Source: Candidatus Saccharimonadales bacterium
GTDB lineage: Bacteria > Patescibacteriota > Saccharimonadia > Saccharimonadales > DASZAF01
NCBI GenBank assembly: GCA_035480055.1
Contig: DATIIB010000009.1
Coordinates: 85,068 to 149,067 of the forward strand
DNA: 64,000 nucleotides
Reading direction: 5' to 3'
Shown here one piece after another: positions 10,832 through 45,666 of the stretch. The translations under genes were made by a program, and so were the position numbers. Every line of letters begins with the position of its first letter. Position 1 is the stretch's first letter. The notes beneath the pieces are model-generated. The model was not told where the DNA came from and did no database searches. It was given only the letters and a program-made list of their open reading frames with translations.

Positions 10832-10842
10832 AGGAAACGATT

Positions 10843-12147
10843 ATGGCTTTATCAACACAACCTTACAAAGGCGCCAGGGATCTGTATCCCGAAGAAAAGC
10901 GCGTTCAAAACTACATCTTTGATATCTGGAAAAAAGTCGCCGAAGGCTACGGCTACGAAAACTACGATGCTCCAATGCTCGAACCGTACGAGCTATACGC
11001 CGCTAAGTCCGGCCAAGAAATTGTCAGCGAACAAACCTATACCTTTACCGATCGTGGTGGTCGCACGGTGTGCATTCGGCCAGAAATGACCCCGAGTGTT
11101 AGCCGTATGGTAGCTGGTCGCCGCCAGGAACTTGCGTATCCAGCTCGCTGGTATTCCATTCCAAACTTATGGCGCTACGAGCGGCCGCAGCGTGGACGTT
11201 TGCGTGAGCACTGGCAGCTTAATGTCGACCTGTTTGGCGTGGACACGATTGATGGCGACCTCGAGCTGATCATGGTGGCCAACGACATCATGAAGGCTTT
11301 TGGCGCGACGGACAAAATGTACAAGATTAAGATCAACAGCCGCATGTTGGTGAACGAAATGATGAGCGGCTACTTGGGCTTGGACGTGATTCAGTCGCAA
11401 CTGATGATCAAACTGTTTGATCGCAAAGATAAGGTTAATCACGAAGAATTTAGCCAGCAAGCGGCTTCAATTTTTGACGATAATCAACGAAGTGATGGGC
11501 TGCGCAAAATTGCTCGCTTGCTCGGTGCCAGCACCATGGCAGAGCTACCAGATGAGCTGCGCGAGACTCACGCGATGCAGGAAGTCCAAGCGCTCTTTAG
11601 CTTGTTGCACGAGCATGGTGTTGCCAACGCGACATTTGATATTACTCTGATGCGTGGGTTTGATTATTACACCGACATTGTGTTTGAGGTCTTTGACACC
11701 AATCCCGAAAACAGTCGTTCGCTATTTGGCGGCGGTCGTTATGACGGACTGGTCGGCTTATTCGGCGTTGAGCCGGTACCGACCGTAGGGTTTGGCATGG
11801 GTGATGTCACGATTCGCGACTTTCTGGATGTGCACGGCCTTTTGCCGCAATTAGACCCAGCGGCTGAGATCTACTTAATTGTCCTGGGCGATGTCATGAA
11901 GCAAGCTCAAAAAGTGGCACGCGACCTCCGTGAAGAAGGTGTGAAGGTGGCGGTGGATATTACGCAGCGCAAGCTGGATAAACAACTTAAAACTGCCATT
12001 AAGCAGGGCATTCCGCACATTTTGTTCATTGGCAAAGAAGAACTGAGCGAAGAAATGTTCACCCTTAAAGACACCCGGACCGAAAAAGAAGAAAAACTCT
12101 CGCTAGAGCGCATAATAACCACCGTAAAGGACGTTCGAGAGGTCTGA
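10843..12147 (+). CDS. hisS: Histidyl-tRNA synthetase
   Basis: It has KGARDLYPEE, class II motifs including RYERPQRGRLREHWQLNVDLFG, GGGRYDGL and a C-terminal anticodon-binding domain. Confidence 0.9.
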   Translation: MALSTQPYKGARDLYPEEKRVQNYIFDIWKKVAEGYGYENYDAPMLEPYELYAAKSGQEIVSEQTYTFTDRGGRTVCIRPEMTPSVSRMVAGRRQELAYPARWYSIPNLWRYERPQRGRLREHWQLNVDLFGVDTIDGDLELIMVANDIMKAFGATDKMYKIKINSRMLVNEMMSGYLGLDVIQSQLMIKLFDRKDKVNHEEFSQQAASIFDDNQRSDGLRKIARLLGASTMAELPDELRETHAMQEVQALFSLLHEHGVANATFDITLMRGFDYYTDIVFEVFDTNPENSRSLFGGGRYDGLVGLFGVEPVPTVGFGMGDVTIRDFLDVHGLLPQLDPAAEIYLIVLGDVMKQAQKVARDLREEGVKVAVDITQRKLDKQLKTAIKQGIPHILFIGKEELSEEMFTLKDTRTEKEEKLSLERIITTVKDVREV

Positions 12148-21759: not shown

Positions 21760-21804
21760 GGTATGCTCGCGCTTCTCTACCAAATATTGTATAATATAGA
21801 TACA

Positions 21805-26123: not shown

Positions 26124-26945
26124 ATGTTGATAAAGTCTTTCTTGTTGGTGACAGGTTTTGCTGTCTCTACGCTGGCTGCTGCACTGACAGGAAGCGCTCA
26201 GGCGCAGAGTGCAACCGCGATCTCGCAAGGTTTTGAGACCAACGATCCAGGCGTGACCGTTGGAGCATTGGTGGTGCTTGAGCCAGGCAAGCAAGGCATT
26301 GTGCATCTCGCCACTCCAGACCAAGTGAGCGGACTGGCAGGCGTGGTTGCAAACAAGCCCTTAGTGGAACTCAGTAGCTCCGGCAAAAGCGTCCAGGTGG
26401 TCACCAGCGGCGTCACCAAAGTGTTGGTCAGTGACATTAATGGTGCAGTTAAAACTGGCGACAAAATAACCGCCTCGCCGATTAGTGGCGTGGGCATGAA
26501 GGCCAACAGCAGTACGCAAATTGTGGGCATCGCCCAGGCTGACCTCCAGAGTGGCGACGTTACCGAACGCACCATCACGGACAAACAAGGCAAGCAGCAG
26601 CAAGTGCATATTGGCGTGATTTCTGTGCAGATAAATATCTCGTACTATATGTCAACTAACGACAAGCGCTCGTTAGTTCCGGCGTTTCTGCAAGGGTTTG
26701 CAAACTCGATCGCGGGCAAAGATGTCTCGATCGCCAGGGTCCTGGCCAGTAGTCTGGTGTTGCTCCTGGGATTTATGAGTATCGCCGTACTTTTGTATGC
26801 TTCTATCCACTCCAGTATTATTTCGATCGGCCGCAATCCGCTCTCTGAGAATGCGGTCCGCAAAAGCCTCTTTGAAGTCGGAGCAATTGCAATTGGTATT
26901 TTGCTAGTTATGCTTATTGCGATATATTTAATCTTGACGACATGA
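26124..26945 (+). CDS. Hypothetical secreted/membrane protein, first gene of the ATPase operon: signal peptide, ~175-aa beta-rich ectodomain, C-terminal two-helix hairpin
   Basis: The signal peptide is MLIKSFLLVTGFAVSTLAAALTGSAQAQ. The C-terminal hairpin has TM1 at ~205-233, the loop SIGRNPLSEN and TM2 at ~248-272 with E251. The next gene starts 13 nt later behind a GGGAGAG SD. A TATAAT at 26088-26093 lies upstream. Confidence 0.75.
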   Translation: MLIKSFLLVTGFAVSTLAAALTGSAQAQSATAISQGFETNDPGVTVGALVVLEPGKQGIVHLATPDQVSGLAGVVANKPLVELSSSGKSVQVVTSGVTKVLVSDINGAVKTGDKITASPISGVGMKANSSTQIVGIAQADLQSGDVTERTITDKQGKQQQVHIGVISVQINISYYMSTNDKRSLVPAFLQGFANSIAGKDVSIARVLASSLVLLLGFMSIAVLLYASIHSSIISIGRNPLSENAVRKSLFEVGAIAIGILLVMLIAIYLILTT

Positions 26946-26958
26946 AGATGGGAGAGAC

Positions 26959-27561
26959 ATGAGCAGTACCGAAATTTTCTTAGCACTTGGACTTGGTGGT
27001 ACGGCGCTGGCTTGTGTACTGTGGGCACTTCGCTTGCGCCAAGAGTTACGGTTGCGCCCAACCGCCAAGCATTACACCATTCACTTGGATGGCACGAAGT
27101 TTTTTGCCGACATTGATGAAGCTGAGGTGCGACATTTGGTACACGACAAGCTGATGGCCTCGGCCGCGAAAGCCGCTGAACGATTTGAGCATGCCTTGAA
27201 CGAAGCAGTTCCAAAGCTACTCAGTAATGTCAGCGATATGAATGCCAAAGCGTTGGCGGCTGAGTTTGAAAAAAGCCAAGCTAGCCTTAAAAACCTTAAC
27301 AGCGAAATTCTGCAAGAGCACGCCGCCTTGCAACAAGAAGTCACCGCTCGCCGAACCGAGCTAATGGATGCGCTTGATAAAGAAATTGTGGCGCAATACC
27401 AGCAGCGCTTGGCTGACTTTGACCAACGGTTTAACGATGTGGTAAGTTCTTTTATTGTAGAAAGTTTTGGGCCAGATGTTGACCTCAGCGCACAAACCAA
27501 TTACATTTTGCAGCAGCTTGAGCAGCATAAAGAACAGATCAAACAGGACATCCAAGCATGA
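26959..27561 (+). CDS. Putative F-type ATPase peripheral-stalk subunit b-like protein
   Basis: It has one N-terminal TM helix followed by a ~165-aa predicted helical, coiled-coil-like region. It sits immediately upstream of the delta-like gene with a 4-nt overlap. The call rests on position and architecture only. Confidence 0.5.
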   Translation: MSSTEIFLALGLGGTALACVLWALRLRQELRLRPTAKHYTIHLDGTKFFADIDEAEVRHLVHDKLMASAAKAAERFEHALNEAVPKLLSNVSDMNAKALAAEFEKSQASLKNLNSEILQEHAALQQEVTARRTELMDALDKEIVAQYQQRLADFDQRFNDVVSSFIVESFGPDVDLSAQTNYILQQLEQHKEQIKQDIQA

Positions 27562-28049
27562 GCGGCACCACATTACCTGGTGAGCTGTATTCTCCTGAAC
27601 ACCTTGGGGTGGTCATTATTGAACTCCGCAACTTTATTGCCAGAATGAACGACCGCGAGGTGCGCAAAAAAGTTACAGGCGCCACGGGTGAAGCCATGCC
27701 GCCATTATCGCGCTTGGCCGAACGCCTTTTGCAGGCTAACGAGCTGACGCCCAGCAAGCTTGAGGGCATTGAGCAGCTGCTCAAAAAGCTCGAAGCCATT
27801 CGCACCGAAGCGCCCACGGTGCACATTGTGCTCGCCGAGCTGCCAGATGCTACTTTGCGCCAGCAGCTGGCTGATTGGTTTCGTACTCAGGCGGATTCGC
27901 ATACTTTGCTGACCTTCGCCATGCGCAGCGACATTGGCGGAGGATTGTTGTTGCAAAGCGGTTCGCACTTGTATGATTTTTCGTTCCGCACCCAACTTTT
28001 AGCCAACAAGCAACGGCTGGCGGAGATATTGACCCATGGCCGAAAATAA
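27558..28049 (+). CDS. atpH: F-type ATPase subunit delta (OSCP)-like
   Basis: The C-terminal signature ...MRSDIGGGLLLQSGSHLYDFSFRTQLLANKQRL resembles the OSCP motif (liGG..v..g....D.S....L). Its position lies between the b-like gene and alpha. Confidence 0.6.
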   Translation: MSGTTLPGELYSPEHLGVVIIELRNFIARMNDREVRKKVTGATGEAMPPLSRLAERLLQANELTPSKLEGIEQLLKKLEAIRTEAPTVHIVLAELPDATLRQQLADWFRTQADSHTLLTFAMRSDIGGGLLLQSGSHLYDFSFRTQLLANKQRLAEILTHGRK

Positions 28050-29465
28050 CACCTTTCACAAACTGGTCGCTGCGGGAAGTCCAACCGGTGAAGTGGTGGG
28101 TTTGGATCGGTTTTTGCTGACCGTTAAAGGGTTAGACGGCATCGCCATTGGGGGCATGGTGCTGTTTGAGACCGGCCAGCATGGCATTATCCGTGAAGTA
28201 AATACCGAGACTGCCTTGGTGCTGAACCTTGATGCCGAAACCACGCCGCTGGGAACGCTGGCAGTGCTCCAAGCCAATACGCCAACCACTGGCGTGGGCG
28301 TGCAGCTTATCGGTCGCGTTATTACACCCCTCTGTCAGCCACTCGATGGCAAAGGACCGGTGCGGCTCGATGGCACCTGGCCACTTTTTTATAAAGCGCC
28401 AGGCATTATGGAGCGCAGCATGCTCAACGAGCAACTTTCTTCTGGCGTCTCGATTGTTGATTCGCTCTTTCCGATCGTACTTGGGCAACGCATTGCGGTG
28501 CTGGGTGATACTAAATCGGGCAAGACGACCTTTTTAACGCAGTTGGGGATTCAACAACTCGGCACTGACCGCGTGGTGGTGTATGTGCTGGTGGGCAAAC
28601 GACGGGTGGAGATTGATCAATTGGTCACCACGCTGACGCAAACCGGGGCGATCGCACACAGTATTGTCATCGTGGCCAACATTTTTGACTCACTTGCCCA
28701 ATCGTACATCGCGCCGTACGTGGGTTGCGCGATTGCCGAGCATCTATGGTACGGCGGGCGCGATGTGGTGATCGTCTACGATGATCTTTCTAGCCACGCC
28801 AAGGTCTACCGCGAGATCTCACTTCTTAGCGAGACAAATCCTGGGCGCGATTCCTATCCAGGCGACATGTTCTTTGCGCATTCGTCATTGCTGGAACGCG
28901 CCGGCAAGCTCGCCAGTAATGGCAAAACGCTCACGGCGCTCCCCACGGTCGTGACGCCAGGCGATGACATTACCGCTTACTTGCCGACCAGCATTATGTC
29001 GATTACCGATGGGCAGATCATTTTTGATCTTGCCACCTTCCGCCAGAACATTCGCCCTGCAGTAAATACCGGATTGTCGGTATCGCGTGTGGGCGGACGG
29101 GTGCAATCGCCACGCCAAAAGCAGGTCGCGGGTGCGCTGTTTAAAAAACTGGCCGATTACCGGCAGGCCACGGAATTTGCGCACTTCGGTTCGGAAATGA
29201 CGTTGGAAACTCGCCAATCATTGCAGCTTGGCCGGCTGATTTACGAAGCTTTTCGCCAAACGCCAACCGAACTTTACAATGTCCTGGAGCAACAGTTACT
29301 GATCGAGGTGGTCCTGCTCAGCGCTGGCGCCCGCACTCTTAATATGCAGCTGCTGCGCCAACAGGTTCGCGAACTTGCCCCGGCAACCGCCAAGGCTACC
29401 AGCGACCAAAACGATGAAATCGTTGCCAAGTTGCTCGACAAAGTAACCATTGAGGTGCTGCCCAC

Positions 29466-29469
<4 letters not shown>
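28036..29469 (+). CDS. atpA: F-type ATPase subunit alpha (divergent, 477 aa)
   Basis: It has the Walker A motif GDTKSGKTT, YDDLSSHAKVYREISLL, PGDMFFAHSSLLERA and TDGQIIFD. Confidence 0.85.
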
Positions 29470-31883
<2,414 letters not shown>

Positions 31884-31900: not shown

Positions 31901-31928
31901 TTGTTTTTTTAAGCATAATCGCTATACT
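31901..31928 (+). promoter_or_regulatory. Candidate promoter TTGTTT-16-TATACT upstream of the giant ORF
   Basis: -35-like and -10-like hexamers are present. A ~37-nt leader ends in an AAGAGG SD next to the GTG start. Confidence 0.35.
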
Positions 31929-31965
31929 AAAAGCGAGAGACTATCGCAAGATATACAACAAAGAG

Positions 31966-34900
31966 GTGGAAGACAATTTGCAAAATACTGGTAGTAATTC
32001 CGGTGGCAATCGTTTAAGTAACACGACGATTGGCTTTTCTGATACGCCCAATTCTGGGGTTCAATACCAGGCTCCTTTGGCTGCGCCACTTCCACCTGCT
32101 CCACCGCCACCCACGCAATCGTTAGAGGTACCGCCTGACAAGCCGGTTAAACCTCCTAGAGATCTACGAAAACTTATCAAACCTGTCGGAATCGGCTTAT
32201 TACTATTTGCCCTGCTTTTTGGCGGGCTCTTTGTGTTTATTACCATGAAACAGCACGCCCGAAAGGCCGCTGTTGCGAACCAGCAAACCGTTGATGCCGA
32301 TGCTCGCTTTAATCCCTTATCAATTTCGTTAAGCGACCTGGCCAAAGCTGGACAATTGGCGATCGACACCACGCCGACGCTGAGTATTAACGGCCAGCTG
32401 AAGGTCAACAACTCGCTGGTCATTTCGCCAACCGACAAGCCAAATGACGCCGTCGCCGGCCAGGTGTACTACGATAAAGGCGATAACAAGCTCGGCTATT
32501 ACAATGGTCACCAATTTGTGTTTATGGCCGACGGAAACCAAGTGGTACATAGCTTCGGCGGGGCAAATGGCGATATTACGCTGGGCAATAATCTTACGGT
32601 AACCAACGGTCAGTTGAATGTGACGCTGCCAACTGCGCAGTCGGTTCTTTCAGTGCAAGGCCAGACCGGCAATGTTTCATTCACCGGAAGCAGCGGCATT
32701 GCCGTAGATGGCACCACTCTAAGCAATACTGGTGTGCTAAATATTGGCGGGCTCACCGGCAGTGTTGGGCTAGGCAGTGGACTCACCGTGACAAACAATA
32801 CGCTCCAAAATAGCGGCATCATCAGCGCCGCCTCTGGCAGTCCAAACGTGACGGTCACCAATGACGGCAGCGGTAACATTACGATTAGCAGTGCGAGCGG
32901 TGGTGGCACAGTGAATAGTCCGGGCGGGACAGCTGGCAAGATCGCCAAATTTACTGGGGTGCAGACGATTGCCGATTCATTACTCTCCGAAAGCGGCAGC
33001 ACCGTAACCGTGGGCGGTAACCTGTCGGTCACCGGCGGACTAACGCTGGGGACGCTACTAAGTGTCGCTAATGGCGGCACCGGCGCGGCCAGTTTGGCGA
33101 ACAATGGCGTTTTGCTGGGCCAAGGCACAAGTCCAATCACCAGCGTCACGGCAGCTGGCAGCGGACTTTGTTTGGTTTCGACCGCGGGCGCGCCAACCTT
33201 CCAAGCTTGTCCAGGTGGCGGTGGCGTCACTTCTTTGGACGGTCTGAGCGGTGGCTTGACGCTCGCGAACAGTACGGGCGCAGGAACCACGATCACCATT
33301 AACGACGCAAGCACCAGCCAAAAGGGCATTGCCAGTTTCAACAGCACCAACTTCACGGCTAGCGGCGGGGCAATCAACACCATCCAAGATATTAGCGTCA
33401 GCGCCACGCCGACCTTCGGCAGATTGAATGTCACTTCCAGCCAAGCGACTAATCCAATGTTGCTGGTGAACAACACAAACGCCGGAGCGAGCGGTAACCT
33501 CCTGGATCTGCAAGTGAATGGCGCCAGTAAGTTCTACGTCACTCCAAGTGGTGGCCTGACACTGACCGGCGCAATTGATGGCCAGACAATATCCAGTAGT
33601 GCCACATTGACCGGCACCTTAACGGTCTCCGGGCCGTCTAACTTGAATGGTGGCGCGACTGTGATAGGCACGTTAACTGCGAACACCATTACGCCCACCA
33701 GCGCGCTGACAGTCGGTGCAACAAACCAGAGCTTCACTCTGCAGGGTAATAGCTCGAGCAGCATTACTGCAACCAATGGCGCCAACACCACAACCGTGGC
33801 TTTCCAGGCGCCCACCGCTAACGTCACCTACCGCTTTCTGACGGCAGCTGCGGGCACTTATGACATCTGCACCACGGCAGGCAACTGTACGGGCGCTGGC
33901 GGCGGTGTGAGCACCACAGGCGGCACCACGGGCACGATCCCGCTCTTTACGGGCAGCCAAACCATTGGCGATTCAGTACTGACTCAAAGTGGCACGACCG
34001 TCACGGTTGGCGGTACTTTGGCGGTCAACACCATCACGCCAACCTCCGCCCTTGTCGTTGGATCAGCTGGCCAGAACCTGACACTGCAAGGCGCAACTAC
34101 TACCGTGAGTTCAAGCGCCGGCGGCGTGACCAACAGTCTGGTTTTTGCCACACCGAGTGGCGGCAACAAGACGATCACCCTACCAAACGCCAGTGGCACA
34201 GTGGCGGTGAGCGCCACGGGCGCACTCAGCATTGATGCGAATGGCAACATCACCTGCCCGAGCTGTCTAACCAGCGCGGTCACCAGCCTCAACGGCCTCA
34301 CAGGCGCCTTAAATATTGCCAACGCCACTGCCAGTGCAAGTACGGTCACCATTAACGACGCATCGACCAGCCAAAAAGGTATCGCGCAGTTCAACAGCAC
34401 CAACTTCACGGCCAGTGGGGGAACGGTAAATACCGTGCAAAACATCAACGTGACTGCAACTCCAACTTTTGGAGATCTGACGCTCACCAGCAGTCAAGCG
34501 AGCAATCCAATGCTACTAGTGAACAACACCAACGCCGGCGCGAGCGGTAATCTACTGGATCTGCAGCTCAACGGACTTAGCAAACTGTCTGTCAGTCCGG
34601 GCGGCAATATGACTTTGGCTGGGACGATCAACGGCCAGACGATATCGAGTACCGCGAGCCTGACTGGTACCTTGGGGGTGGCCGGACTTGCCAGTTTGAA
34701 CGGTGGCGCAACGGTCACTGGGACGTTAACTGCCAACACTATCACTCCTACTGGCGCATTAACGGTTGGCGCAACCAACCAAAGTCTTCTTTTGCAAGGC
34801 AATAGCGCGACCAGCATTACCGCAACCAATGGTGCTAACACGACCACCTTCAATTTCCAGGCACCGACAGCCAACGTGACGTATCGCCTGCTGACCGCAG

Positions 34901-37900
34901 CGGCCGGCACCTATGATATTTGTACAAGCGTCGGCAACTGTGCTGGCACTGGCGGGGGAGTAACCACACCTGGAGGCACGGCTGGCAAGGTTGCCAAGTT
35001 CACCGCCAGCGGCGTGATCGGCGATTCAATCATTACCGACAATGGCAGTACGGTCACCATCGGCGGAACCTTAGCGGTCAATACGCTGACGCCGACCGGC
35101 GCTTTGACCGTTGGCGCAACTGGTCAGAATTTGACCTTGCAAGGCGCAACAACATCAGTCAGCGCGACTTCAGCCGGCATCACCAACACCTTAACGTTTG
35201 CCACCCCAAGCGGCAGCAACAAGACAATCACCATCCCCGATGCCAGTGGCACAGTGGCGGTCAGTGCCAGCGGGCCGATTCAAGTAGATGCCGCGGGTAA
35301 CATTACCTGTCCTAACTGTGTCACGACCAGCGGTGGTGGCGGACAGTCGGCTGTCGATAGCTTGAACGGCCTGACAGGCGCGCTGACACTCGCCAATGCC
35401 ACCGGCAGCGGCGGAACAGTCACCATCAACGATGCGAGCACCAGCCAAAAAGGTATCGCCCAGTTTAACAGCACCAACTTTACGGCGAGTGGCGGAACGG
35501 TCAACACCATTCAAGACATCAATACCACCGCAGCGCCAACTTTTGGTCGTCTGAATATCACTTCTAGCCAAGCCACTAACGACATGATCGCGGTCAACAA
35601 TACAAACGTCAGCGCGGCAGGTAATTTGCTCAAACTCCAATTGAATGGCGCTAATCGCTTTAGCGTCGATGCTGCAGGGAATGTGGTTGCGACAGGCACA
35701 CTGACCTCTGGCGCAATCAATGGCCAAACGATTTCAAACGCTGCAAGCCTGACCGGCACACTTGGTGTTGCTGGTTTAGCCAGTTTGAACGGCGGTGCGA
35801 CGGTCACTGGAACCTTGACTGCCAACACCATCACCTCCACCGCAGCCATGACGGTGGGCAATACGGGCCAAAATCTGACCCTGCAAGGTGCAGCCACAAC
35901 CATCACCTCTACCAGTGGTGCCAACACAACCACCTTGGCACTCCAAACTCCAACCGCCAACGTGACCTACCGACTACTGACCGCAGCAGCCGGCACCTAC
36001 GATATCTGTACCACCGTGGGAAACTGTGCAGGTGTGGGCGGGGGAGTGACGACGCCTGGCGGCACGGCAGGCAAGATCGCCAAGTTTACGGCCAGCGGCG
36101 TGATCGCCGATTCATTGCTTTCCGAAAGTGGTTCGACAATAACTGTGGCCGGGAACCTTAATTTAGTCACCGGCAATCAGTACCAGATCAATGGCACCCA
36201 GATCTCCTCGGCTGATCTTTCCAATGATGCCAATCTCGCCAAATTAAATGCCGCCCAAACCTTTACCGGCACCACCAATACTTTCAAAAACAGCAGCGAC
36301 TCGACCAGCGGCTTCACCATCCAAAACGCTGCGGGCCGCAATCTGCTGAATGCCAATACCTCCACCGGCGTCTTTACCTTTGGCAACATCACCAGCACGG
36401 CTGCTCAAGGCATTGCTGGCGCGTTGCAGTTGGCTGACGGGACCAATGATAACTTTGGTCTGACACTCAATACCACCACCTTAACCGGCAATCGAACCAT
36501 CAGCCTGCCAGATGCCGGTGGAACGGTGTGTCTGCAGAACTCAGCTTCATGTGGATTTGCAACGTCGTCGGGCTCAGGTAATTACATTCAGAATCAAATT
36601 GCGGCCGACCAAACCGCTAATTTCCGCATTACAGGTACCGGCCAAGCCAATACCTCATTACTGACGCCATTGCTCGACACTGCCACGGCGGTCGCCTTAA
36701 ATATCGGTACCAACAATGCCACAGTGATTAATCTTAATCAAAGCACCACAGTTGCTGCCAACAAGAACATTACATTTGCCGCGGGTGCAGGTAATTTTGA
36801 CCAATCAAACTCGACTGGGACATTCGCGACCGGGACAGGTCTGGTCAACCTCAATGGCAATACAACTGTAGCCAGCGGCAAGACCTTTACCGCCAACGGC
36901 GCTGCGCTTTTCCAAAGCAATGCCAACTCGGCCACTGCCTTCCAAGTGCAAAACGCTGCCGGGCGACACCTGCTGGCTGTTGATACATCGGGCAACAAAA
37001 CCACACTCGGCAATATCACCAGCACTGCAGGACAGGGGATTGCTGGCGCGTTGCAGTTGGCTGACGGGACCAATGATAACTTTGGCGCCACAATCAACAC
37101 CACCACGCTGACCGCTAACCGAACAATCATCGTTCCAGACGAATCTGGCACTCTCTGTTTACAAAGTTCTGGTTCATGTGGCTTTGCTGCCGCAACCGGC
37201 TCGGCCAACTACTTGCAGAACCAAAATAGCGTCGACCAAACGGCAAACTTCCGCATTACCGGCACCGGCCAGGCCAACACTTCACTCCTGACGCCACTAC
37301 TTGATACGGCCTCAGCAGTTGCGCTAAATATCGGGACAACGAACGCGACGGGCATCAACCTTAACCAGAGCACCAGCATTGCCGCCAACAAAAACCTCAG
37401 CTTTGCGGCTGGCGCAGGCAACTTTGACCAATCCAACTCGACCGGCACCTTTGCAACCGGCTCGGGCGCAGTCGGGCTAAACGGCAATGTGACCATTGCG
37501 GCAGGCAAAACGCTGACCTCCAACGGTACGGCTTTGTTCCAGAATAATGCAAACACCGCCACCGCCTTCCAAGTGCAGAATGCGGCCGGCCGGCAAATCT
37601 TAACGGTCGATACCTCTGGAAGCAAAACAACTTTTGGTAACATTACCAGCACGGCTGCGCAGGGGATTGCTGGCAACCTGGTATTGGCCGATGGCACAAA
37701 TGATAACTTTGGCCTGACCCTCAACACCACCACCTTGACCGCAAGCCGAACCATCACCTTCCCAGATGCGGCTGGCACGGTGTGTCTGCAAAGCTCGGCA
37801 GCATGTGGCTTTGCACTGTCATCCGGATCTGGCAATTACATCCAGAACCAAAGCGCCTCCGATCAAAGCGCTGATTTGCGCATTACCGGCACAGCCCGAG

Positions 37901-40900
37901 CCAACACTTCCGTACTGACCCCATTACTCGACACAGCCAGTGCCGCAGCACTCAACATCGGCACCACCAACGCCACGGCAATCAACTTGAACCAGAACAC
38001 CACCGTTGCCAGCGGCAAAACCTTTACCGCCAATGGGACGGCTCTGTTCAAACCAAATGCCGATTCAACCACCGCGTTCCAAATTCAGCCAGCAAGCATC
38101 AGCACCCCTGTATTTGACGTCAACACCACCAACCAGCGAGTGGGAATCAATACCAACGCACCAACCGAAGCTTTGGACGTAGTAGGAAACCTGCAAGTCA
38201 AAGACGCGGCCACAGCCACCAAAGCGTATCGGCTTCGTACTTCGGGCGGCGCGCTCGACCTTGAAGCTGGCGGCGCAAACTTGGTCCTGTCGGTATGGAG
38301 TGCCGCCGACTACACCGGGACACAGTACAGCCAATTCACGTTCCACAATGATGGATCGAGTATAGATGCCGGGCGCGGGATTATTGTTGGCGGTAACCTG
38401 GTCACGCACGGAACTGGACTCTTTAAGAACTCTTCGGACGGCGCAGGGGCGGTACAAGTCCAGAACGCGAGTGGTCTGAGTATTCTCTCCACCGATACCA
38501 GTACTGGAAAAACGACGCTGGGCAACATTACTAGTACTGCTGCCCAGGGAGTGGCAGGTGCGCTGGTACTCGCCGATGGCACCAACGACAACTTTGGTAT
38601 GACGCTGAACACCACCACCTTGACCGCCAACCGCACCATTAGCTTGCCTGATGCCGCCGGTACCATCTGTCTGCAGAATGCCACGGCGTGTGGATTTGCT
38701 GCTGCTAGCGGTTCAGCCAACTACATCCAAAACCAAAGCAGTGCTGACCAAACCGCTGATTTCCGCATCAGCGGCACTGCCAGGGCTAACACCTCGGTGG
38801 TTACTCCATTGCTCGATACAGCCTCAGGTGTTGCACTCAACATCGGCACCACCAACGCCACAGCCATCAACCTCAACAAAGCAACGGCGGTCACTGGGAA
38901 CTTATCGCAATCAGGCGGGACTATCACCCTTACCGGCAACAACACTTCGAGTGTCAGCACCACCACGGGCACCCTCACGCTACAAGGCGCAGGAGGCGTA
39001 ACCATTAACTCAACCAATGTTTCGGGAGCTTCTGGCGCAATCAGTTTGCAAAGCGGCAACTCGTCGGCAGGAACAGCGGGTAACGTCACCATTGATACCG
39101 GCACTACCTCCACTGGCACGCCAACGGTGAATGTGGGTGCCACCAATGCCAAAGCGGTGGCGGTGGGCAATACCGGCGGCACTGTCGCAATTCAAGGAAA
39201 CGGCACCTCAACAGCGGTGAGCATTCAATCAGCCGCTTCGGGCACGATTGCCATTGGAACGGCCAACGCCGCCAACACAATTCAGCTTGGCAACATTGCC
39301 AATGCCATCGCCCAGACCATCGGCATTGGCAACAACGCCACTGCCAGTTCAACCACCACGTTAGCAATGGGGAACTTACTCGGCACCAGCACAACGACAA
39401 TTCAAGGTGGCACTGGCGCCTCGGCGGTTGGCATTCAAGCTGGCACCAACGGCACAATCTCAATCGGAACCGCCAACGCCAATGCGGTTGTTATTGGCAA
39501 CACGGGTGCGACTGGTACAAACTCGATTACCGTTGGCCAATCAACTGCCAGCAACACGATCAACATCGGCAATGCGACTACCGCAACTGGTAACACGCAG
39601 ACGATTAACCTGGGTACCGCAGCAACCGGTACGGGCAAAGCAACAATCACCGTCGGCAACACCAACGGTGGGTCAGCCCTTAACTTGCAAGCCGGCACGG
39701 GCAACACCAATGTCCTCACCAACACCAGCGTCACCAGCTCGCCAATGTTCCTGCTCCAAAATGCAGGAGCTGGCGATGCAGGCCTAGAGGTAAAAACCGC
39801 CAACGCTGGCAGTAGCTACTACGTGGGAGTCGATGCCAGCAATGGTAACGCCTTTAACATCAACTCGTACACCGCGGCCACGCAAAACGGTACGGCGTAT
39901 GTATTCGGTCAGCAAACTCCTAACGCCTCGACTGACTCCAACGCGGGTGTCATCGAAACCTCGGACTTCACTACCAGTACCGCGGGCTCGATTTCGGCCA
40001 TTACCATGGACTTCAGTAACGTGGCCACGGTGGGCGATACTGTCTCAGTAGGGTTATATACTGATAGCGCTGGCTCTCCAGGTACACTCCTAGCTTCAAG
40101 CGGCACGCAAACCATCAATATTACCAGCGCTGGTGGACACAACTTAAATACCGTCAGTATTCCAACCACTGCTTTGAGCGCTACAACCAAATACTGGCTC
40201 GCCTTTAACACCAGCGGCCTCGACCCTTACTGGCAAGGAGCGAATAACTCTGGCCACTCAATTAAATACCTCACTCATGCCAACACCAGCTGGCCAGCTA
40301 GCTTTGGCACTCCAGGTGGAACCGACAGCAACACCGTCCTGACCGTGTATGGAACGGTAACCCCTAGCGGCTCGCTGACTGATACGTACACCAATTCACT
40401 CTTTAACTTAACTCAGGGCGGAGTTGCCACCTTCCGTAACGCGTCAAACTCCACTGGCGGATTCCAAGTACAGAACGCAAGCAGCGTGAACCAACTCGCC
40501 ATTGATACCACCAACTCACGCGTGATCTTAGGCACCAGCGATGGCGACACCACCGGAACATTGCTGGTCCTTGGCACCAAGACTACCAGCGGCGACCCTA
40601 CCGAAGTTGATGGCGCAATGTACTACAACAACGCCACTGAATCATTCCGTTGCGGCGTCAATGGAGCGTGGTACAGCTGTTTGGGCGGCATGCGCTATTC
40701 GCAAACGAGCCAAGGCAACCAGTCTGGGAACTTGCCACCTGCGAGTGATACGGTTGCAAACACTGTGACAGCCACAACATTTAACGATAAATATAGCGTA
40801 CCTGCAGGTGACTGTACGCCAGGACGCGTTTATCGCATAACTGCAGGTGGCGTCATCACCTTCCCAAGTACCTCGGGGTCACCAGCAAACGATATATCCG

Positions 40901-41244
40901 TGAAGATCCTGTGGGGCGCTACAACTATCGGTGTTACTGACTCCGGCGCGAGCTACCCAACTACCAGCGCAAATACCAATGTACCGTGGTACCTCAAGGC
41001 AACCATTACGTGTTACTCAACTTTCAGCGGTGGAACCACTTCTGCCGAGGTGCAGGGAGAGTTCTCGCTTAGCTCTAACGCGACTGGGCCAGCGCAACTT
41101 TCAATGATCGGCAACAGCTCAATCGGCCAAACGATTACAGTTAACAGCGCTCAGAACCTCGCACTTCAGTGGAAGTGGGGAACCGCCACCTCAACCCGAA
41201 GTATTACGCTACGCACATTTGTTGTCGAAGCACTCGGCCCATAA
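31966..41244 (+). CDS. Giant (3092 aa) membrane-anchored, repeat-rich surface fibre/adhesin-like protein
   Basis: The ORF is uninterrupted. A Pro-rich cytoplasmic N-terminus precedes one TM helix (IGLLLFALLFGGLFVFITM). The remaining ~3000 aa are rich in G/T/N/S/A with very few charged residues. They comprise three ~350-aa repeats, four ~209-aa repeats, a short-period repeat block and a unique C-terminal ~480 aa. Confidence 0.9.
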   Translation: MEDNLQNTGSNSGGNRLSNTTIGFSDTPNSGVQYQAPLAAPLPPAPPPPTQSLEVPPDKPVKPPRDLRKLIKPVGIGLLLFALLFGGLFVFITMKQHARKAAVANQQTVDADARFNPLSISLSDLAKAGQLAIDTTPTLSINGQLKVNNSLVISPTDKPNDAVAGQVYYDKGDNKLGYYNGHQFVFMADGNQVVHSFGGANGDITLGNNLTVTNGQLNVTLPTAQSVLSVQGQTGNVSFTGSSGIAVDGTTLSNTGVLNIGGLTGSVGLGSGLTVTNNTLQNSGIISAASGSPNVTVTNDGSGNITISSASGGGTVNSPGGTAGKIAKFTGVQTIADSLLSESGSTVTVGGNLSVTGGLTLGTLLSVANGGTGAASLANNGVLLGQGTSPITSVTAAGSGLCLVSTAGAPTFQACPGGGGVTSLDGLSGGLTLANSTGAGTTITINDASTSQKGIASFNSTNFTASGGAINTIQDISVSATPTFGRLNVTSSQATNPMLLVNNTNAGASGNLLDLQVNGASKFYVTPSGGLTLTGAIDGQTISSSATLTGTLTVSGPSNLNGGATVIGTLTANTITPTSALTVGATNQSFTLQGNSSSSITATNGANTTTVAFQAPTANVTYRFLTAAAGTYDICTTAGNCTGAGGGVSTTGGTTGTIPLFTGSQTIGDSVLTQSGTTVTVGGTLAVNTITPTSALVVGSAGQNLTLQGATTTVSSSAGGVTNSLVFATPSGGNKTITLPNASGTVAVSATGALSIDANGNITCPSCLTSAVTSLNGLTGALNIANATASASTVTINDASTSQKGIAQFNSTNFTASGGTVNTVQNINVTATPTFGDLTLTSSQASNPMLLVNNTNAGASGNLLDLQLNGLSKLSVSPGGNMTLAGTINGQTISSTASLTGTLGVAGLASLNGGATVTGTLTANTITPTGALTVGATNQSLLLQGNSATSITATNGANTTTFNFQAPTANVTYRLLTAAAGTYDICTSVGNCAGTGGGVTTPGGTAGKVAKFTASGVIGDSIITDNGSTVTIGGTLAVNTLTPTGALTVGATGQNLTLQGATTSVSATSAGITNTLTFATPSGSNKTITIPDASGTVAVSASGPIQVDAAGNITCPNCVTTSGGGGQSAVDSLNGLTGALTLANATGSGGTVTINDASTSQKGIAQFNSTNFTASGGTVNTIQDINTTAAPTFGRLNITSSQATNDMIAVNNTNVSAAGNLLKLQLNGANRFSVDAAGNVVATGTLTSGAINGQTISNAASLTGTLGVAGLASLNGGATVTGTLTANTITSTAAMTVGNTGQNLTLQGAATTITSTSGANTTTLALQTPTANVTYRLLTAAAGTYDICTTVGNCAGVGGGVTTPGGTAGKIAKFTASGVIADSLLSESGSTITVAGNLNLVTGNQYQINGTQISSADLSNDANLAKLNAAQTFTGTTNTFKNSSDSTSGFTIQNAAGRNLLNANTSTGVFTFGNITSTAAQGIAGALQLADGTNDNFGLTLNTTTLTGNRTISLPDAGGTVCLQNSASCGFATSSGSGNYIQNQIAADQTANFRITGTGQANTSLLTPLLDTATAVALNIGTNNATVINLNQSTTVAANKNITFAAGAGNFDQSNSTGTFATGTGLVNLNGNTTVASGKTFTANGAALFQSNANSATAFQVQNAAGRHLLAVDTSGNKTTLGNITSTAGQGIAGALQLADGTNDNFGATINTTTLTANRTIIVPDESGTLCLQSSGSCGFAAATGSANYLQNQNSVDQTANFRITGTGQANTSLLTPLLDTASAVALNIGTTNATGINLNQSTSIAANKNLSFAAGAGNFDQSNSTGTFATGSGAVGLNGNVTIAAGKTLTSNGTALFQNNANTATAFQVQNAAGRQILTVDTSGSKTTFGNITSTAAQGIAGNLVLADGTNDNFGLTLNTTTLTASRTITFPDAAGTVCLQSSAACGFALSSGSGNYIQNQSASDQSADLRITGTARANTSVLTPLLDTASAAALNIGTTNATAINLNQNTTVASGKTFTANGTALFKPNADSTTAFQIQPASISTPVFDVNTTNQRVGINTNAPTEALDVVGNLQVKDAATATKAYRLRTSGGALDLEAGGANLVLSVWSAADYTGTQYSQFTFHNDGSSIDAGRGIIVGGNLVTHGTGLFKNSSDGAGAVQVQNASGLSILSTDTSTGKTTLGNITSTAAQGVAGALVLADGTNDNFGMTLNTTTLTANRTISLPDAAGTICLQNATACGFAAASGSANYIQNQSSADQTADFRISGTARANTSVVTPLLDTASGVALNIGTTNATAINLNKATAVTGNLSQSGGTITLTGNNTSSVSTTTGTLTLQGAGGVTINSTNVSGASGAISLQSGNSSAGTAGNVTIDTGTTSTGTPTVNVGATNAKAVAVGNTGGTVAIQGNGTSTAVSIQSAASGTIAIGTANAANTIQLGNIANAIAQTIGIGNNATASSTTTLAMGNLLGTSTTTIQGGTGASAVGIQAGTNGTISIGTANANAVVIGNTGATGTNSITVGQSTASNTINIGNATTATGNTQTINLGTAATGTGKATITVGNTNGGSALNLQAGTGNTNVLTNTSVTSSPMFLLQNAGAGDAGLEVKTANAGSSYYVGVDASNGNAFNINSYTAATQNGTAYVFGQQTPNASTDSNAGVIETSDFTTSTAGSISAITMDFSNVATVGDTVSVGLYTDSAGSPGTLLASSGTQTINITSAGGHNLNTVSIPTTALSATTKYWLAFNTSGLDPYWQGANNSGHSIKYLTHANTSWPASFGTPGGTDSNTVLTVYGTVTPSGSLTDTYTNSLFNLTQGGVATFRNASNSTGGFQVQNASSVNQLAIDTTNSRVILGTSDGDTTGTLLVLGTKTTSGDPTEVDGAMYYNNATESFRCGVNGAWYSCLGGMRYSQTSQGNQSGNLPPASDTVANTVTATTFNDKYSVPAGDCTPGRVYRITAGGVITFPSTSGSPANDISVKILWGATTIGVTDSGASYPTTSANTNVPWYLKATITCYSTFSGGTTSAEVQGEFSLSSNATGPAQLSMIGNSSIGQTITVNSAQNLALQWKWGTATSTRSITLRTFVVEALGP
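32900..36170 (+). repeat. Intragenic tandem repeat type A: three full units of ~1.05-1.08 kb plus partial flanks
   Basis: Units start at 33225, 34279 and 35354. Each encodes V(T/D)SL(D/N)GL(S/T)G.L..AN...TINDASTSQKGIAQFNSTNFTASGG.(V/I)NT(I/V)Q(D/N)I, ...LLVNNTNAGASGNLLDLQ.NG, ...TAAAGTYDICT..GNC.G.GGGV and ...GNITCP.C. DNA identity between units is ~80-85% by eye. Confidence 0.85.
36283..38900 (+). repeat. Intragenic tandem repeat type B: 627-nt (209-aa) units
   Basis: Units start at 36283, 36910 and 37537, giving an exact 627-nt period. A fourth starts at 38422 after a ~375-nt unique insert (38047-38421). The unit motif is F(K/Q)N..(D/N)....F.(I/V)QNA.G...L..DTS..KTT.GNITSTAAQGIAG.L.LADGTNDNFG...NTTTLT.NRTI..PD..GT.CLQ.S..CGFA...GS.NY(I/L)QNQ...DQ(T/S)A(N/D)(F/L)RI(T/S)GT..ANTS.(L/V)TPLLDTA...ALNIGT.NAT.INLN. 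Confidence 0.85.
38900..39760 (+). repeat. Intragenic short-period degenerate repeat block (beta-helix-like)
   Basis: The block contains runs such as GTIAIGTANAANTIQLGN, GTISIGTANANAVVIGN, NTINIGNATTATGNTQTINLG and KATITVGNTNGG, with a ~15-20-aa periodicity. Confidence 0.6.
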
Positions 41245-41272: not shown

Positions 41273-41839
41273 ATGAAATATCTCAAAAAACTACCTATAA
41301 AATCAGTAAGCCAGAAAGGGAGATTTGTGCTGGCAGTCGTCATTGGCGCAGTGGTTGGTGGAGCATCGACCGCCATTGTGCAGGCCGCAATTCCGAGTAG
41401 TAATGGGACAATTAGCGGCTGTTACAGCAAAGTGACAGGCGCCCTAAAAGTAAAGGACACCGAGGCCGGGCAAACGTGTACCGGATTGGAGAACAGTATT
41501 AGCTGGCCATCGCAAGGCGGCGGTTCGCAGCAAGCGATAAGTTATGTACGACTAAACGCCGACGGAACTCTCGATACTAGCTACTCTCGTGGCGTACAGA
41601 CTGCCGACCTAGTGCCTATACCAAACAGCGATCCTATTGTTTACAATCTATGTCTTAAGATGAGCACAACGCCTAAAGCTGCGCTAAAGAACGGCACACA
41701 TTACGGTGGCTTACCCCTTGCAGCGGGAGACCCTAACCAAGCTTCCGAGATACAAGACTCATGTGGTTCAGGCTATAATGCAGAGTTGGCAAGTTTGAGC
41801 CCGCCATATGAAACCCAAATTGGTATTTACTTCAACTAA
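41273..41839 (+). CDS. Hypothetical small secreted or N-terminally anchored protein
   Basis: The ATG at 41273 follows an AAGGAGA SD, 28 nt after the giant ORF's stop. It has an N-terminal TM/signal anchor (FVLAVVIGAVVGGASTAIVQAA) and the Cys-containing motif GTISGCYSKVTGALKVKD...QTCTGLENSISW. Confidence 0.7.
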   Translation: MKYLKKLPIKSVSQKGRFVLAVVIGAVVGGASTAIVQAAIPSSNGTISGCYSKVTGALKVKDTEAGQTCTGLENSISWPSQGGGSQQAISYVRLNADGTLDTSYSRGVQTADLVPIPNSDPIVYNLCLKMSTTPKAALKNGTHYGGLPLAAGDPNQASEIQDSCGSGYNAELASLSPPYETQIGIYFN

Positions 41840-41844: not shown

Positions 41845-42396
41845 TTAATTCGGCACCTTCACCAACGCTTCAGCAATCTGCTGGAGCGTTTTGGTTGAGA
41901 CATCCGTGGGAGCATTGAGGATAATCCAGGTTCCGGTTTTGTCATTACTCACCAGACTGGCAACATGAACCGTTTTTTGGGCATCGGTTAATTTGCCAAC
42001 CGTGCCTTGGCCAGCTTGAGCCGTAATGTGGCTGGCATCTTCAAAGTTTTTAGTAAAAGTTCCCATGTCAAAGCCAGACGGAACCGCTTGCTGGCTCATA
42101 TAAATTGGCGGCTTGCCCTTGGCGGTGAATGACATCACCGTCACGCCTTTTTGAGGCTGCGACACCCGGCTCGGATCCATGGTGTAACCGCCCGGCAGTT
42201 TGGTTGGGTAATACAGCTGCGTCTGCGCGTTAGATTGCACCAGCACCGTAAAGGGGTTCTTCTGCGTATGGCGATGCAGTAAAGTATACACACCAGCAAG
42301 TCCCGCGACCACCAAAATGGTGCTGAAGCAACCCACCAACACCGCGCTCAGCGGCAGCGAACGACGTACTTTCATATTGCTTATTGTAACAAACAA
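41845..42396 (-). CDS. Hypothetical N-terminally membrane-anchored protein
   Basis: It has one TM helix (LSAVLVGCFSTILVVAGLAGVYTLL) and a ~130-aa ectodomain. It is convergent with the preceding gene, separated by a 5-nt gap. An alternative start lies at 42375. Confidence 0.65.
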   Translation of the reverse strand: MFVTISNMKVRRSLPLSAVLVGCFSTILVVAGLAGVYTLLHRHTQKNPFTVLVQSNAQTQLYYPTKLPGGYTMDPSRVSQPQKGVTVMSFTAKGKPPIYMSQQAVPSGFDMGTFTKNFEDASHITAQAGQGTVGKLTDAQKTVHVASLVSNDKTGTWIILNAPTDVSTKTLQQIAEALVKVPN

Positions 42397-44613: not shown

Positions 44614-45666
44614 TTAGTCCCAAAGATCCGACTGAACAACAAACCGTAGGTCTCTGTATGGTTCATCTGTCGCAATCTCTGGATGCGAAAAGTATATCGG
44701 CCGATCTTCAGTCCAACTGGAATCATGGACGGTTGGGACACAGGACCGGGATGAATGACTGACATAAAGTCCGGGCCCCACCACAAATCCCAGATGATAT
44801 TGAGTGTAAGGCTCGGGGAACCATGCTACGACATCTCCGATTCGCTCCTCTTCATCAGGCTCCCAGCCATTCTCTCGCATGCATTGCATCGTGGATTCGG
44901 TAGTGGCATGTGCGCAAGGGAGTAAACCTTGGTCTTCAAGAACGTTGCTCACGAAGAAAGCGCAAGATTCTCTCCCGTCTTCGAGCACATCTACTTCTTC
45001 GCCAGTTTCTGGGTCGCGTACGTAGTAGTGCTGGTAGTCAGTGCTCCCAACCTCTCCAGCGATAGCTGACATAAGTTCAGTATGCTCAGGACTTAGTTCC
45101 AGCTCGTCTGGCAGGGGTAGCTCCGAGGTTTCGTTTGAGCGCACGATAGCAAGATCGGCGCGTTCAGAAGGAGTTTCCGTAAGTTGAAAATCTGCCTTAT
45201 CTTCGACAGGGATGCTTACTTGTTCTGGCCTTGACGATTCTGCCGCCGCAACCGTGGCTGCTACAGCGATTGGGCCCGGCGCTGGAGCTTCGAATGTCAG
45301 GGCAAGTGGTGCCTCTTCTGAGCTAGACTCGTCTATAGGTGATCTGGGTATTTTCCCCTCAGTACCTTCTGGCTCGAAGATCTCAAGGTTAGTTGGAAGC
45401 GCTGCGCGAGAAATTTTATCAGCCACAGAAGTCGCCGCGCCTTTATTCATTTCCGTGTCGGCTGGATCTTCCAGAATAGACCCGGCGGGTCTGGCTTCTT
45501 CTATAGAACGTTGCAGCGCGGCCTGAAATGCATTGCCATCGTCTTCTGCGGCACCATCAGAAGTTGCCCCCGAAAGAGGCGCGGATTGTTCGGGATAATT
45601 AGCCAGGTCGTTGTAAGTAAACTCTTCTGCAGCCATAGAATAGCTGCTATGATACCACAAAAGCAT
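44614..45666 (-). CDS. Hypothetical protein with an acidic, low-complexity N-terminal ~210 aa and a C-terminal NlpC/P60-like (papain-fold) domain
   Basis: There is no signal peptide. The C-terminal segment reads ...GRESCAFFVSNVLEDQGLL...ERIGDVVAWFPEPYTQYHLGFVVGPGLYVSHSS, matching the Cys...GD-hydrophobic...H-hydrophobic-G...H order of NlpC/P60/CHAP-type hydrolases. An alternative start (MAAEEF) at 45636 is preceded by TGgTATCAT. Codon usage looks atypical. Confidence 0.7.
   Translation of the reverse strand: MLLWYHSSYSMAAEEFTYNDLANYPEQSAPLSGATSDGAAEDDGNAFQAALQRSIEEARPAGSILEDPADTEMNKGAATSVADKISRAALPTNLEIFEPEGTEGKIPRSPIDESSSEEAPLALTFEAPAPGPIAVAATVAAAESSRPEQVSIPVEDKADFQLTETPSERADLAIVRSNETSELPLPDELELSPEHTELMSAIAGEVGSTDYQHYYVRDPETGEEVDVLEDGRESCAFFVSNVLEDQGLLPCAHATTESTMQCMRENGWEPDEEERIGDVVAWFPEPYTQYHLGFVVGPGLYVSHSSRSCVPTVHDSSWTEDRPIYFSHPEIATDEPYRDLRFVVQSDLWD

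Follow-up and report, generated by a model that had tools for sequence, protein, structure and literature searches.

A giant, putatively membrane-anchored protein encoded beside the atp operon in Saccharimonadales is a candidate adhesion fiber with an apparently exchangeable tip

Introduction

Apart from type IV pili and some generic adhesin domains, little has been established about how the ultrasmall bacteria of the Candidate Phyla Radiation (CPR)/Patescibacteria recognize their hosts and keep hold of them. The question takes a concrete form in a stretch of 64,000 nucleotides, hereafter referred to as the window (positions 85,068 to 149,067 of contig DATIIB010000009.1, assembly GCA_035480055.1, Candidatus Saccharimonadales bacterium), in which one giant gene of 3092 codons is situated between the atp operon and fusA. 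What does the product of this gene do for the cell? Candidates proposed for host recognition include very large surface proteins found in Patescibacteria (PMC13059738), and for one cultured saccharibacterium adhesins have been shown to be essential when it grows epibiotically (PMC10633639); the family of the giant protein is described in neither paper, and full-text literature searches found no description of it. A preliminary description of the window, made from the sequence, proposed a fiber-like surface protein serving in host attachment. The analysis reported here makes it reasonably probable that the giant protein is a type II (N-in, C-out) membrane-anchored fiber for adhesion or host recognition, which carries an exchangeable tip.

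Results

The giant open reading frame is a gene under selection

The giant gene is a single 9.3-kb open reading frame (ORF) whose product, as stated in the preliminary description, has 3092 amino acids (aa), a Pro-rich N-terminus, and one transmembrane helix (Table 1). A frame of this length cannot have arisen by chance at the given base composition. The ratio of nonsynonymous to synonymous substitution rates (dN/dS), calculated by the Nei-Gojobori method between the internal repeat copies, was 0.08–0.145 (0.08–0.15 when rounded), which places the frame under purifying selection, and dS was at least 1.4 or saturated, so that the duplications giving rise to the repeats are considered to be old. 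Because the repeat copies are only 68–79% identical as DNA, their collapse or expansion during assembly is unlikely. Interruption of the frame in other assemblies had been named beforehand as the observation that would speak against the fiber, and no such interruption was found. The same gene occurs in record GCA_964479845.1 on contig CAYZNG010000002.1 (317 kb), and another metagenome-assembled genome (MAG) record of Candidatus Saccharimonadales bacterium encodes, on a 341-kb contig, the protein HSX28689.1, which has 3092 aa and is 100% identical, although the two records need not derive from independent reads; in addition, intact orthologs of 1764–4635 aa occur in other genomes. The giant ORF is a real gene under selection.

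The 5′ end of the gene offers two in-frame start codons. Initiation at TTG 31978 would give a product of 3088 aa, 4 aa shorter than the GTG version; the public gene call P0029 uses this TTG, and the NCBI protein HSX28689.1 uses the GTG. Since the Shine-Dalgarno-like AAGAGGTGG overlaps the GTG, TTG 31978 may be the true start. P0029, which emerged as an "88% identical" top match, was rejected as an ortholog because it is the same gene called from TTG. In the spacer between atpC and the giant gene, the motif AAGCATAAnCGCTATAnT and the GGTGGA start region are kept in an alignment of five syntenic loci (the window and L004–L007), and this conservation suggests that the giant gene has a promoter of its own; the motif was not called by a generic sigma-70 scan.

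A large undescribed family with modules absent from curated libraries

The giant protein is a member of a large, undescribed family of putative Saccharimonadales fibers built of modules that are missing from curated libraries. An exhaustive HMMER scan with aa 1893–3092 as the query against 1.84 billion cluster representatives (50% identity clusters) gave 1739 relatives at E ≤ 1e-3, of which 908 reached E ≤ 1e-10 and 231 reached E ≤ 1e-30; lengths of 1000–4600 aa are frequent among the relatives. Word-index domain searches gave only 8 and 20 matches, low-complexity words saturating the candidates. All organism-level names obtained from the exhaustive and genome scans were Saccharibacteria or Saccharimonadales, while a word-index fragment, P0012, is labelled "Nitrososphaera sp." and another only "bacterium." One family member has been named "beta strand repeat-containing protein" by NCBI. 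Most of the members on short contigs end at contig edges.

When the whole giant protein was compared with Pfam, PHROGs, and NCBIfam, nothing rose above noise. Scanned singly, module by module, at permissive thresholds (E up to 5 for Pfam and up to 1 for PHROGs), the A, B, short-repeat, linker, and tip modules had no Pfam or PHROG match, and the likeness of INDASTSQKGIAQFNSTNFT to phage tail-fiber repeats that the preliminary description had proposed found no support. Weak PHROG matches were obtained for the Nterm/A0 stretch at aa 146–261 (phrog_8309, of unknown function, E = 5.6e-6; phrog_6613, "tail protein," E = 0.0075) and for the B insert (phrog_5906, E = 4.3e-4; phrog_9942, "tail fiber protein," E = 0.0034). 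In PDB, sequence and profile searches found no relative, whether the query was the entire protein, its A or B units, or the C-terminal profile; tblastn against 50,697 phage genomes gave no match, and a pattern-based IMG/VR scan with the B unit found nothing. A trimeric-autotransporter or pectate-lyase-like family, the other affiliation envisaged at the outset, is likewise not supported for the giant protein itself, in which Pfam detected no YadA_anchor, Hep_Hag, or HIM and no Beta_helix, Pect-lyase_RHGA_epim, or NosD. With Pfam and NCBIfam, neither an SLH or other S-layer domain nor a catalytic domain was detected in it. Pfam domains found among 34 family members are CBM_4_9 (in four), Beta_helix (in two), GH85_C (in two), Pect-lyase_RHGA_epim, NosD, NHL, SO2946-like_C, and DUF2793, and precomputed matches in close relatives include Kelch, LVIVD, and NosD/Beta_helix.

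Conserved base and neck, shuffled modules, and apparently exchangeable tips

The repeat map (Table 1) was constructed from chunked self-BLAST, DNA repeat finding, and alignments; Tandem Repeats Finder, limited to a maximum period of 500 nt, missed the repeats. The three repeat systems reported earlier correspond to the A and B units and to short [VIL]x[VIL]G repeats, and all of the motifs quoted at that time are present. The A units are 68–84% identical as protein and have an internal sub-repeat of ~117 aa; each of the three has a C-x5-C pair, and a C-x2-C pair is found only in A1 and A2. The short-repeat region recurs as a module in relatives, and aa 2591–3092 constitute a non-repetitive C-terminus. 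No paralog of the giant gene exists elsewhere in the window.

Mapping of the modules on 177 family sequences showed that they are shuffled and that relatives vary widely in total length and in how many A and B units they have, which is the outcome of the copy-number comparison suggested in the preliminary description. The module composed of the transmembrane helix and Nterm is present in 46 of the 177 sequences, nearly all of which then continue into A units. Two kinds of N-terminus were distinguished: the first, as in the giant protein, consists of a tail of variable length, the transmembrane helix, Nterm, and A units, and the second opens with a signal-peptide-like stretch, after which come another type of N-terminal domain and B units.

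At the other end, the complete C-terminal module of 263 aa almost always reaches the last residues of the protein, and its first ~100 residues, the neck, also occur internally in relatives. The N-terminal ~1400–1470 residues of the giant protein are 61–64% identical to those of P0063 and P0062, and in most of the Nterm/A-type relatives that were tested the neck is 47–62% identical, even where the tip is unrelated. The tip (aa 2920–3092) is common only to P0063 (56%) and P0036 (63%), with no tip match in eight other relatives tested; after the neck, P0039, P0062, and P0033 continue with unrelated sequences of 139–239 aa, and P0061 and P0092 also have the neck close to the C-terminus. The alignments thus show tips that appear to be exchangeable behind a conserved base and neck.

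The beta-sandwich domain of aa ~2681–2800 is found twice in P0006, N-terminal to a glycoside hydrolase family 6 (GH6) catalytic domain. P0006 is a secreted protein of 709 aa from another metagenome, annotated as "endoglucanase" by the Joint Genome Institute, and the domain is placed where a carbohydrate-binding module (CBM) would be expected. A "DUF4082-like" label considered for aa 2681–2800 was dropped, as Pfam gave it no support.

Table 1 Features of the giant gene and its surroundings. Positions are those of the window; residues are those of the giant protein read from GTG.
Feature	Position	Residues	Strand	Remarks
rpoB	start 14340
rpoC	start 17740
842-aa ORF	21763-24291		+	unannotated, between rpoC and rpsG region; no Pfam match, charged, unrelated to the giant family
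rpsG	start 24870			upstream of giant gene
atp operon	26124-31883			between rpsG and giant gene
Possible promoter motif AAGCATAAtCGCTATAcT (written also as AAGCATAAnCGCTATAnT)	31911..31928		+	-10-like TATACT, ~40 nt upstream of start
Translation start region	31961..31980		+	Shine-Dalgarno-like AAGAGGTGG, GTG 31966, in-frame TTG 31978
Giant gene	31966..41244	1-3092	+	one uninterrupted frame, 3092 codons, GTG start
N-terminal Pro/Ala/Gln-rich tail	31966..32172	1-69	+	predicted cytoplasmic; ends ...APLAAPLPPAPPPPTQSLEVPPDKPVKPPRDLRKLIKP
Sole transmembrane helix	32173..32244	~70-93	+	predicted signal anchor; Kyte-Doolittle scan
"Nterm" stalk-base module	32248..32565	95-200	+	motif GQVYYDKGDNKLGYYNG; follows transmembrane helix in 46 family members
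Degenerate partial A-type unit (A0)	32566..33225	201-420	+	repeat map
Three A units	33226..36141	421-771, 772-1129, 1130-~1392	+	period 351-358 aa
Four B units	36142..38955	~1393-1600, 1601-1809, 1810-2035, 2131-2330	+	period 209 aa; C-x6-C pair in each
Insert of ~95 aa within B array	38071-38355	2036-2130	+	contains VGINTNAPTEALDVVG
Short-repeat region	38956..39735	2331-2590	+	[VIL]x[VIL]G every ~10-15 residues; beta-solenoid-like sequence pattern
Linker, then small beta-sandwich domain	39736..40365	2591-2680, then 2681-2800	+
Conserved neck	40393..40722	~2810-2919	+	FQVQNA...GDTTGTLLVLG.KTTSGDPTEVDGAMYYN....FRCG..GAW.SC.GG
C-terminal tip domain plus stop codon	40723..41244	2920-3092	+	predicted beta-sandwich, AlphaFold model
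188-aa ORF	41273-41839		+	signal-peptide-like N-terminus, several Cys; ~30 nt past giant stop
183-aa ORF	41845-42396		-	convergent; N-terminal transmembrane segment, extracytoplasmic domain, motif YYPTKLPGGY; no Pfam match
fusA	start 42508			downstream
350-aa acidic ORF	44614-45666		-	unannotated, between fusA and tuf
tuf	start 45770			downstream
rpsJ	start 47001			downstream

The bulk of the protein is very likely extracytoplasmic

The predominance of a few uncharged residues noted in the preliminary description was confirmed: the giant protein contains T 16.9%, G 13.0%, A 12.3%, S 10.0%, N 9.6%, and L 8.1%, against K+R of 2.8% and D+E of 3.7%. Its predicted mass is 304 kDa and its isoelectric point 4.8, and it has 112 N-x-S/T sequons. 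The transmembrane helix is flanked by six K/R residues on its N-terminal side versus three on its C-terminal side, and the same positive-inside bias is seen in the three orthologs whose sequence includes the helix (P0063, P0039, and P0062). The N-terminal tails of the orthologs are of similar composition, and the measurable ones, in these same three proteins, are ~24–116 aa long. The 24 Cys residues form 12 pairs, 11 of them spaced 2–12 residues and one 66 residues apart, with the spacings C-x5-C (GTYDICTxxGNC), C-x2-C (GNITCPxC), C-x6-C (CLQxSxxCGF), C-x12-C, and C-x8-C. The Cys pairs of the A and B units are invariant among the internal copies, and the Cys residues of the neck and tip are invariant or nearly so across 29 relatives. 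Because of the K/R bias at the helix, the pairing of all Cys residues, the composition, and the domains of the relatives, the bulk of the protein is placed outside the cell, and we consider it very likely to be extracytoplasmic and anchored N-terminally by the single transmembrane helix. The fiber-like, modular character that had been claimed for it is also supported.

Predicted structure of the tip and the stalk

AlphaFold2 applied to aa 2680–3092 with an alignment of 29 sequences gave a model with a mean predicted local distance difference test (pLDDT) score of 73. The first ~70 residues of the model (aa 2680–2750) form a beta-sandwich with pLDDT blocks of 66–86, and the tip (aa 2929–3092, ~165 residues) forms another, with blocks mostly of 80–95 and three at 69–73. 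A Foldseek search of the BFVD viral models gave 100 matches at E ≤ 1e-3, the best at 5e-12, mostly to uncharacterized Caudovirales proteins, and alignments of ~166–183 columns with a root mean square deviation (rmsd) of 3.0–4.3 to phage depolymerase and tail-fiber proteins, a likeness at the level of the fold only. These matches include a phage "pectate lyase superfamily protein" (rmsd 3.0, 23% identity), a phage protein of 186 aa (rmsd 3.1, target template modeling (TM) score 0.67), the K63 depolymerase of Klebsiella phage KP34 (rmsd 4.1), a protein of Alteromonas phage ZP6 (rmsd 4.3), and also proteins annotated with the lambda Stf repeat-2 and the Mtd N-terminal domain. The fold shown by the model for the tip is a predicted lectin-like beta-sandwich, which most resembles C-terminal parts of phage receptor-binding proteins.

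The long tail fibers of phage T4 measure ~0.06 nm per residue. By analogy with them, we infer that the stalk would be an extended fiber of the order of 150–200 nm, a length comparable to the size of the cell.

The conserved linkage is with the atp operon

The gene had been located inside the str region, and it does have rpsG upstream and fusA, tuf, and rpsJ downstream; the linkage that is conserved, however, is with the atp operon and not with the str genes. A gene of the giant type directly follows atpC in eight loci, namely the window, L004–L007, L009, L010, and L013. The adjacent orthologs are P0063 (3229 aa) in L004, P0039 (3143 aa) in L005, P0062 (4635 aa) in L006, P0033 (4418 aa) in L007, and proteins of 1764 aa in L009 and 3510 aa in L010; across these loci AtpD is 71–80% and AtpA 65–70% identical. 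In L008 the relative P0079 is followed by two ORFs that correspond, by size alone, to the first two ORFs of the atp operon in other loci, and in L011, L012, and L014 there are no atp genes upstream. Linkage with atp is therefore frequent but not universal. Glycoside hydrolase and transferase genes are situated near the L007 ortholog. At L013, a related metagenome contig, two family genes stand in tandem after atpC, a short one (4242–5591) comprising an Nterm-like part and the neck and then a longer one (6343–10947), an arrangement that suggests duplication or fission.

Two small ORFs occupy the space between the giant gene and fusA. The convergent 183-aa ORF has homologs of 26–32% identity (E from 1e-6 to 2e-11) at the same position and on the minus strand in L004 (17691–18212), L005 (17491–18039), and L010 (~11143–11487); the convergent homologs are ~175–190 aa long, and ORFs of similar size are found at this position in L006 and L007. 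The product of the 183-aa ORF may help to anchor or assemble the fiber. The 188-aa ORF also has a longer, TTG-initiated frame from 41219 that overlaps the end of the giant gene, and L004–L007 have no plus-strand equivalent of this ORF at that position.

Discussion

In the reading that we favor, the short Pro-rich cytoplasmic tail and the single transmembrane helix would hold the protein in the membrane, ~3000 residues of disulfide-stapled, beta-rich modules (Nterm, A, B, and short-repeat) would form a long stalk, and the conserved neck would carry the lectin-like beta-sandwich at its end. The tip would bind a surface glycan or another ligand on another cell, most plausibly a host bacterium, and the exchange of tip cassettes behind the neck might change the specificity, as it does in phage receptor-binding proteins. 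The role in host attachment proposed in the preliminary description is plausible and is indirectly strengthened by the fold of the tip, by the swapping of tips behind the neck, and by the CBM_4_9, beta-helix, Kelch, and GH85_C modules of relatives.

Several points weigh against such a host-recognition fiber. The reading depends on sequences and predicted structures, and the presumably epibiotic lifestyle of the source organism is inferred from its order. The likeness of the tip to phage proteins exists only at the fold level, with identities of 12–23%; the tip has no tblastn match in the 50,697 phage genomes and no PHROG match, and the assignment of the BFVD matches to the tip relies on their aligned length, which fits this domain, since Foldseek gave no aligned coordinates. 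Beta-sandwiches are common folds and can converge. The matches of the model in PDB, which include legume lectins, the receptor-binding domain of botulinum neurotoxin (BoNT), alginate lyase, and lambda gpJ, are weak, with E from 4.8e-4, TM scores of 0.2–0.38, rmsd of 7–17 Å, and probabilities of 0.9–1.0. As for the stalk, the AlphaFold model of A2-A3-B1 (829 aa, 30 alignment rows) reached a pLDDT of 52.6 and a predicted TM score of 0.26, too low to define the stalk geometry; the low pLDDT fits an obligate oligomer and, equally, a shallow alignment. Furthermore, the gene next to atpC in the cultured Saccharibacteria strain S. epibionticum ML1 is folC. With no counterpart of the giant gene beside atp in S. 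epibionticum, transposon sequencing (Tn-seq) data cannot be transferred to the giant locus; a keyword search in ML1 found no comparable protein. The Foldseek matches of the A2-A3-B1 model, headed by a "Phage tail fiber-like protein" of a Synechococcus phage, were set aside as uninformative (TM scores ≤0.16, rmsd ~17–93 Å).

An alternative function, which we regard as unlikely but worth serious attention, is that of an envelope-structural protein, such as an S-layer-like canopy, a spacer, or a protective coat, rather than a ligand-specific adhesin. Tetrabrachion of Staphylothermus is a membrane-anchored stalk protein and provides an analog. The conserved chromosomal locus beside housekeeping genes, the conservation of the N-terminal half, which is about as high as that of AtpG and AtpC, and the acidic, Thr/Ser/Asn-rich composition with its many N-x-S/T sequons, typical of surface-layer glycoproteins, would all suit such a role. 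A lattice, however, is less easily reconciled than ligand recognition with a variable distal end whose tips are swapped behind the neck, or with the CBM, lectin-like, Kelch, and depolymerase-like modules of the relatives, and the giant protein has no SLH or other S-layer family match.

It is somewhat less likely again that the surface fiber binds or processes environmental polysaccharides or biofilm matrix, for nutrient capture or attachment to a substrate, and does not serve to recognize a host. A stalk of ~3000 residues would be needless for the capture of a substrate, no catalytic domain was detected, and the best fold matches of the tip are phage proteins that recognize cell surfaces. What speaks for this function is the sharing of the aa 2681–2800 beta-sandwich with the GH6 endoglucanase P0006, the occurrence of CBM_4_9, GH85_C, and pectate-lyase-like domains in relatives, and the glycoside hydrolase and transferase genes near the L007 ortholog.

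Could the gene belong to a phage, a prophage, or a tailocin, or have been acquired recently from one? The fold-level matches of the tip to the C-termini of phage tail fibers and depolymerases and the weak PHROG tail and tail-fiber matches of the Nterm module and B insert point in that direction, yet this origin is very improbable, for the flanking genes (the atp operon, fusA, and tuf) are not phage genes, the locus is conserved in eight genomes, an N-terminal transmembrane anchor is unfit for virion assembly, neither the phage genomes nor the IMG/VR scan with the B unit gave a match, and the saturated dS between the repeats makes the array old. Hardly deserving of belief, finally, is an artifact of repeat misassembly or a chance frame in biased DNA, which the many long antisense ORFs due to base composition and the short-contig family members stopping at contig ends might bring to mind, but which is contradicted by repeats too diverged to collapse or expand (68–79% identical as DNA), by dN/dS of 0.08–0.145, by the identical protein in a second MAG record, and by hundreds of homologs.

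The favored reading, an anchored adhesion fiber, can be compared with known systems. Phage receptor-binding proteins, such as long tail fibers, tailspikes/depolymerases, the KP34 K63 depolymerase, and lambda Stf, are likewise long and beta-rich, with modular repeats rich in Thr, Gly, Asn, and Ser, and have a conserved proximal and an exchangeable distal part; the predicted fold of the tip matches their C-terminal parts, and relatives of the giant protein carry pectate-lyase-like beta-helices as phage tailspikes do. The giant gene differs from theirs in being cellular, chromosomally syntenic, and furnished with an N-terminal transmembrane anchor, and its product has no intramolecular chaperone domain that we could find and no sequence match to phage genomes. 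With RTX/Bap-type adhesins and the large surface proteins of Patescibacteria (PMC13059738), the giant protein shares a size above 1500 aa, surface targeting, tandem repeats, and a proposed role in attachment, and repeat number varies among its relatives as it does in giant bacterial adhesins. In contrast to those adhesins, its modules are absent from Pfam and NCBIfam, and its anchor is an N-terminal signal-anchor instead of a type I secretion system (T1SS) retention module, an LPXTG motif, or an outer-membrane barrel. What distinguishes it among giant surface adhesins is the combination of uncurated modules, a type II anchor, neck-and-tip cassettes, and an atp-adjacent position.

The short-repeat region (xIxIGxxNAxx...) resembles the YadA-head/Hep_Hag repeats of YadA-family trimeric autotransporters in sequence, and the logic of stalk and head is similar; the anchor of the giant protein, however, is N-terminal and in the cytoplasmic membrane, and YadA_anchor, Hep_Hag, and HIM are not matched. 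An outer membrane is generally held to be absent from Saccharibacteria. The tip also gives weak Foldseek matches to legume lectins and the BoNT receptor-binding domain, which recalls the jelly rolls of the legume-lectin/concanavalin-A-like type, but the superposition is weak (TM scores of 0.2–0.38) and the tip has no sequence-profile match.

A broader proposal can be put forward tentatively, as one that we hold to be possible and not yet probable: environmental Saccharimonadales may carry a chromosomally fixed, membrane-anchored analog of the phage tail fiber, in which unrelated receptor-binding tips, the lectin-like beta-sandwich of the giant protein being one, would be exchanged on a conserved stalk and neck and the tip would set the host cell to which the epibiont attaches, so that host range would evolve by a phage-like cassette logic, and the linkage with atp in eight loci together with the convergent transmembrane protein might mark a dedicated locus with its own assembly or anchoring partner. 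The family comprises ~1700 clusters (50% identity), which no curated domain library covers, and its anatomy is what one would expect if it determined specificity: the anchor and stalk are conserved, as is the neck, whereas the tips, of a glycan-binding type, appear interchangeable. If the proposal is true, the tip would be a host-range marker of uncultured Saccharimonadales that can be read from sequence, the neck and tip (~280 aa) would make a concrete construct for binding assays, and one modular architecture for receptor binding would have been reached both by a cell and by its viruses. Should the protein serve solely as a structural coat, it would still be a major unannotated component of the Saccharimonadales envelope.

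Additional observations on the window

The rpsL-rpsG-fusA-tuf (str) cluster is split in the window (24870–47324), the ~17 kb between rpsG and fusA being made up of the atp operon, the giant gene, and the two small ORFs. Downstream of rpsJ, which is normally followed by rplC, a 91-aa ORF and then, at a distance of ~430 nt from rpsJ, a 495-aa ORF (47756–49243, plus strand) are present; the 495-aa product has a hydrophobic segment in its N-terminal part and is without a Pfam match. On the minus strand between 32000 and 40300, more than 20 antisense ORFs of 90–288 aa (e.g. 32610–33476) are found inside the giant gene; they are not genes and are attributable to its codon composition, with a GC content of 0.54–0.57, a GC skew down to -0.15, and few reverse-complement stops. 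The sole RNA gene in the window, as judged by Rfam and ARAGORN, is a tRNA-Leu(TAA) at 9589–9675 on the plus strand.

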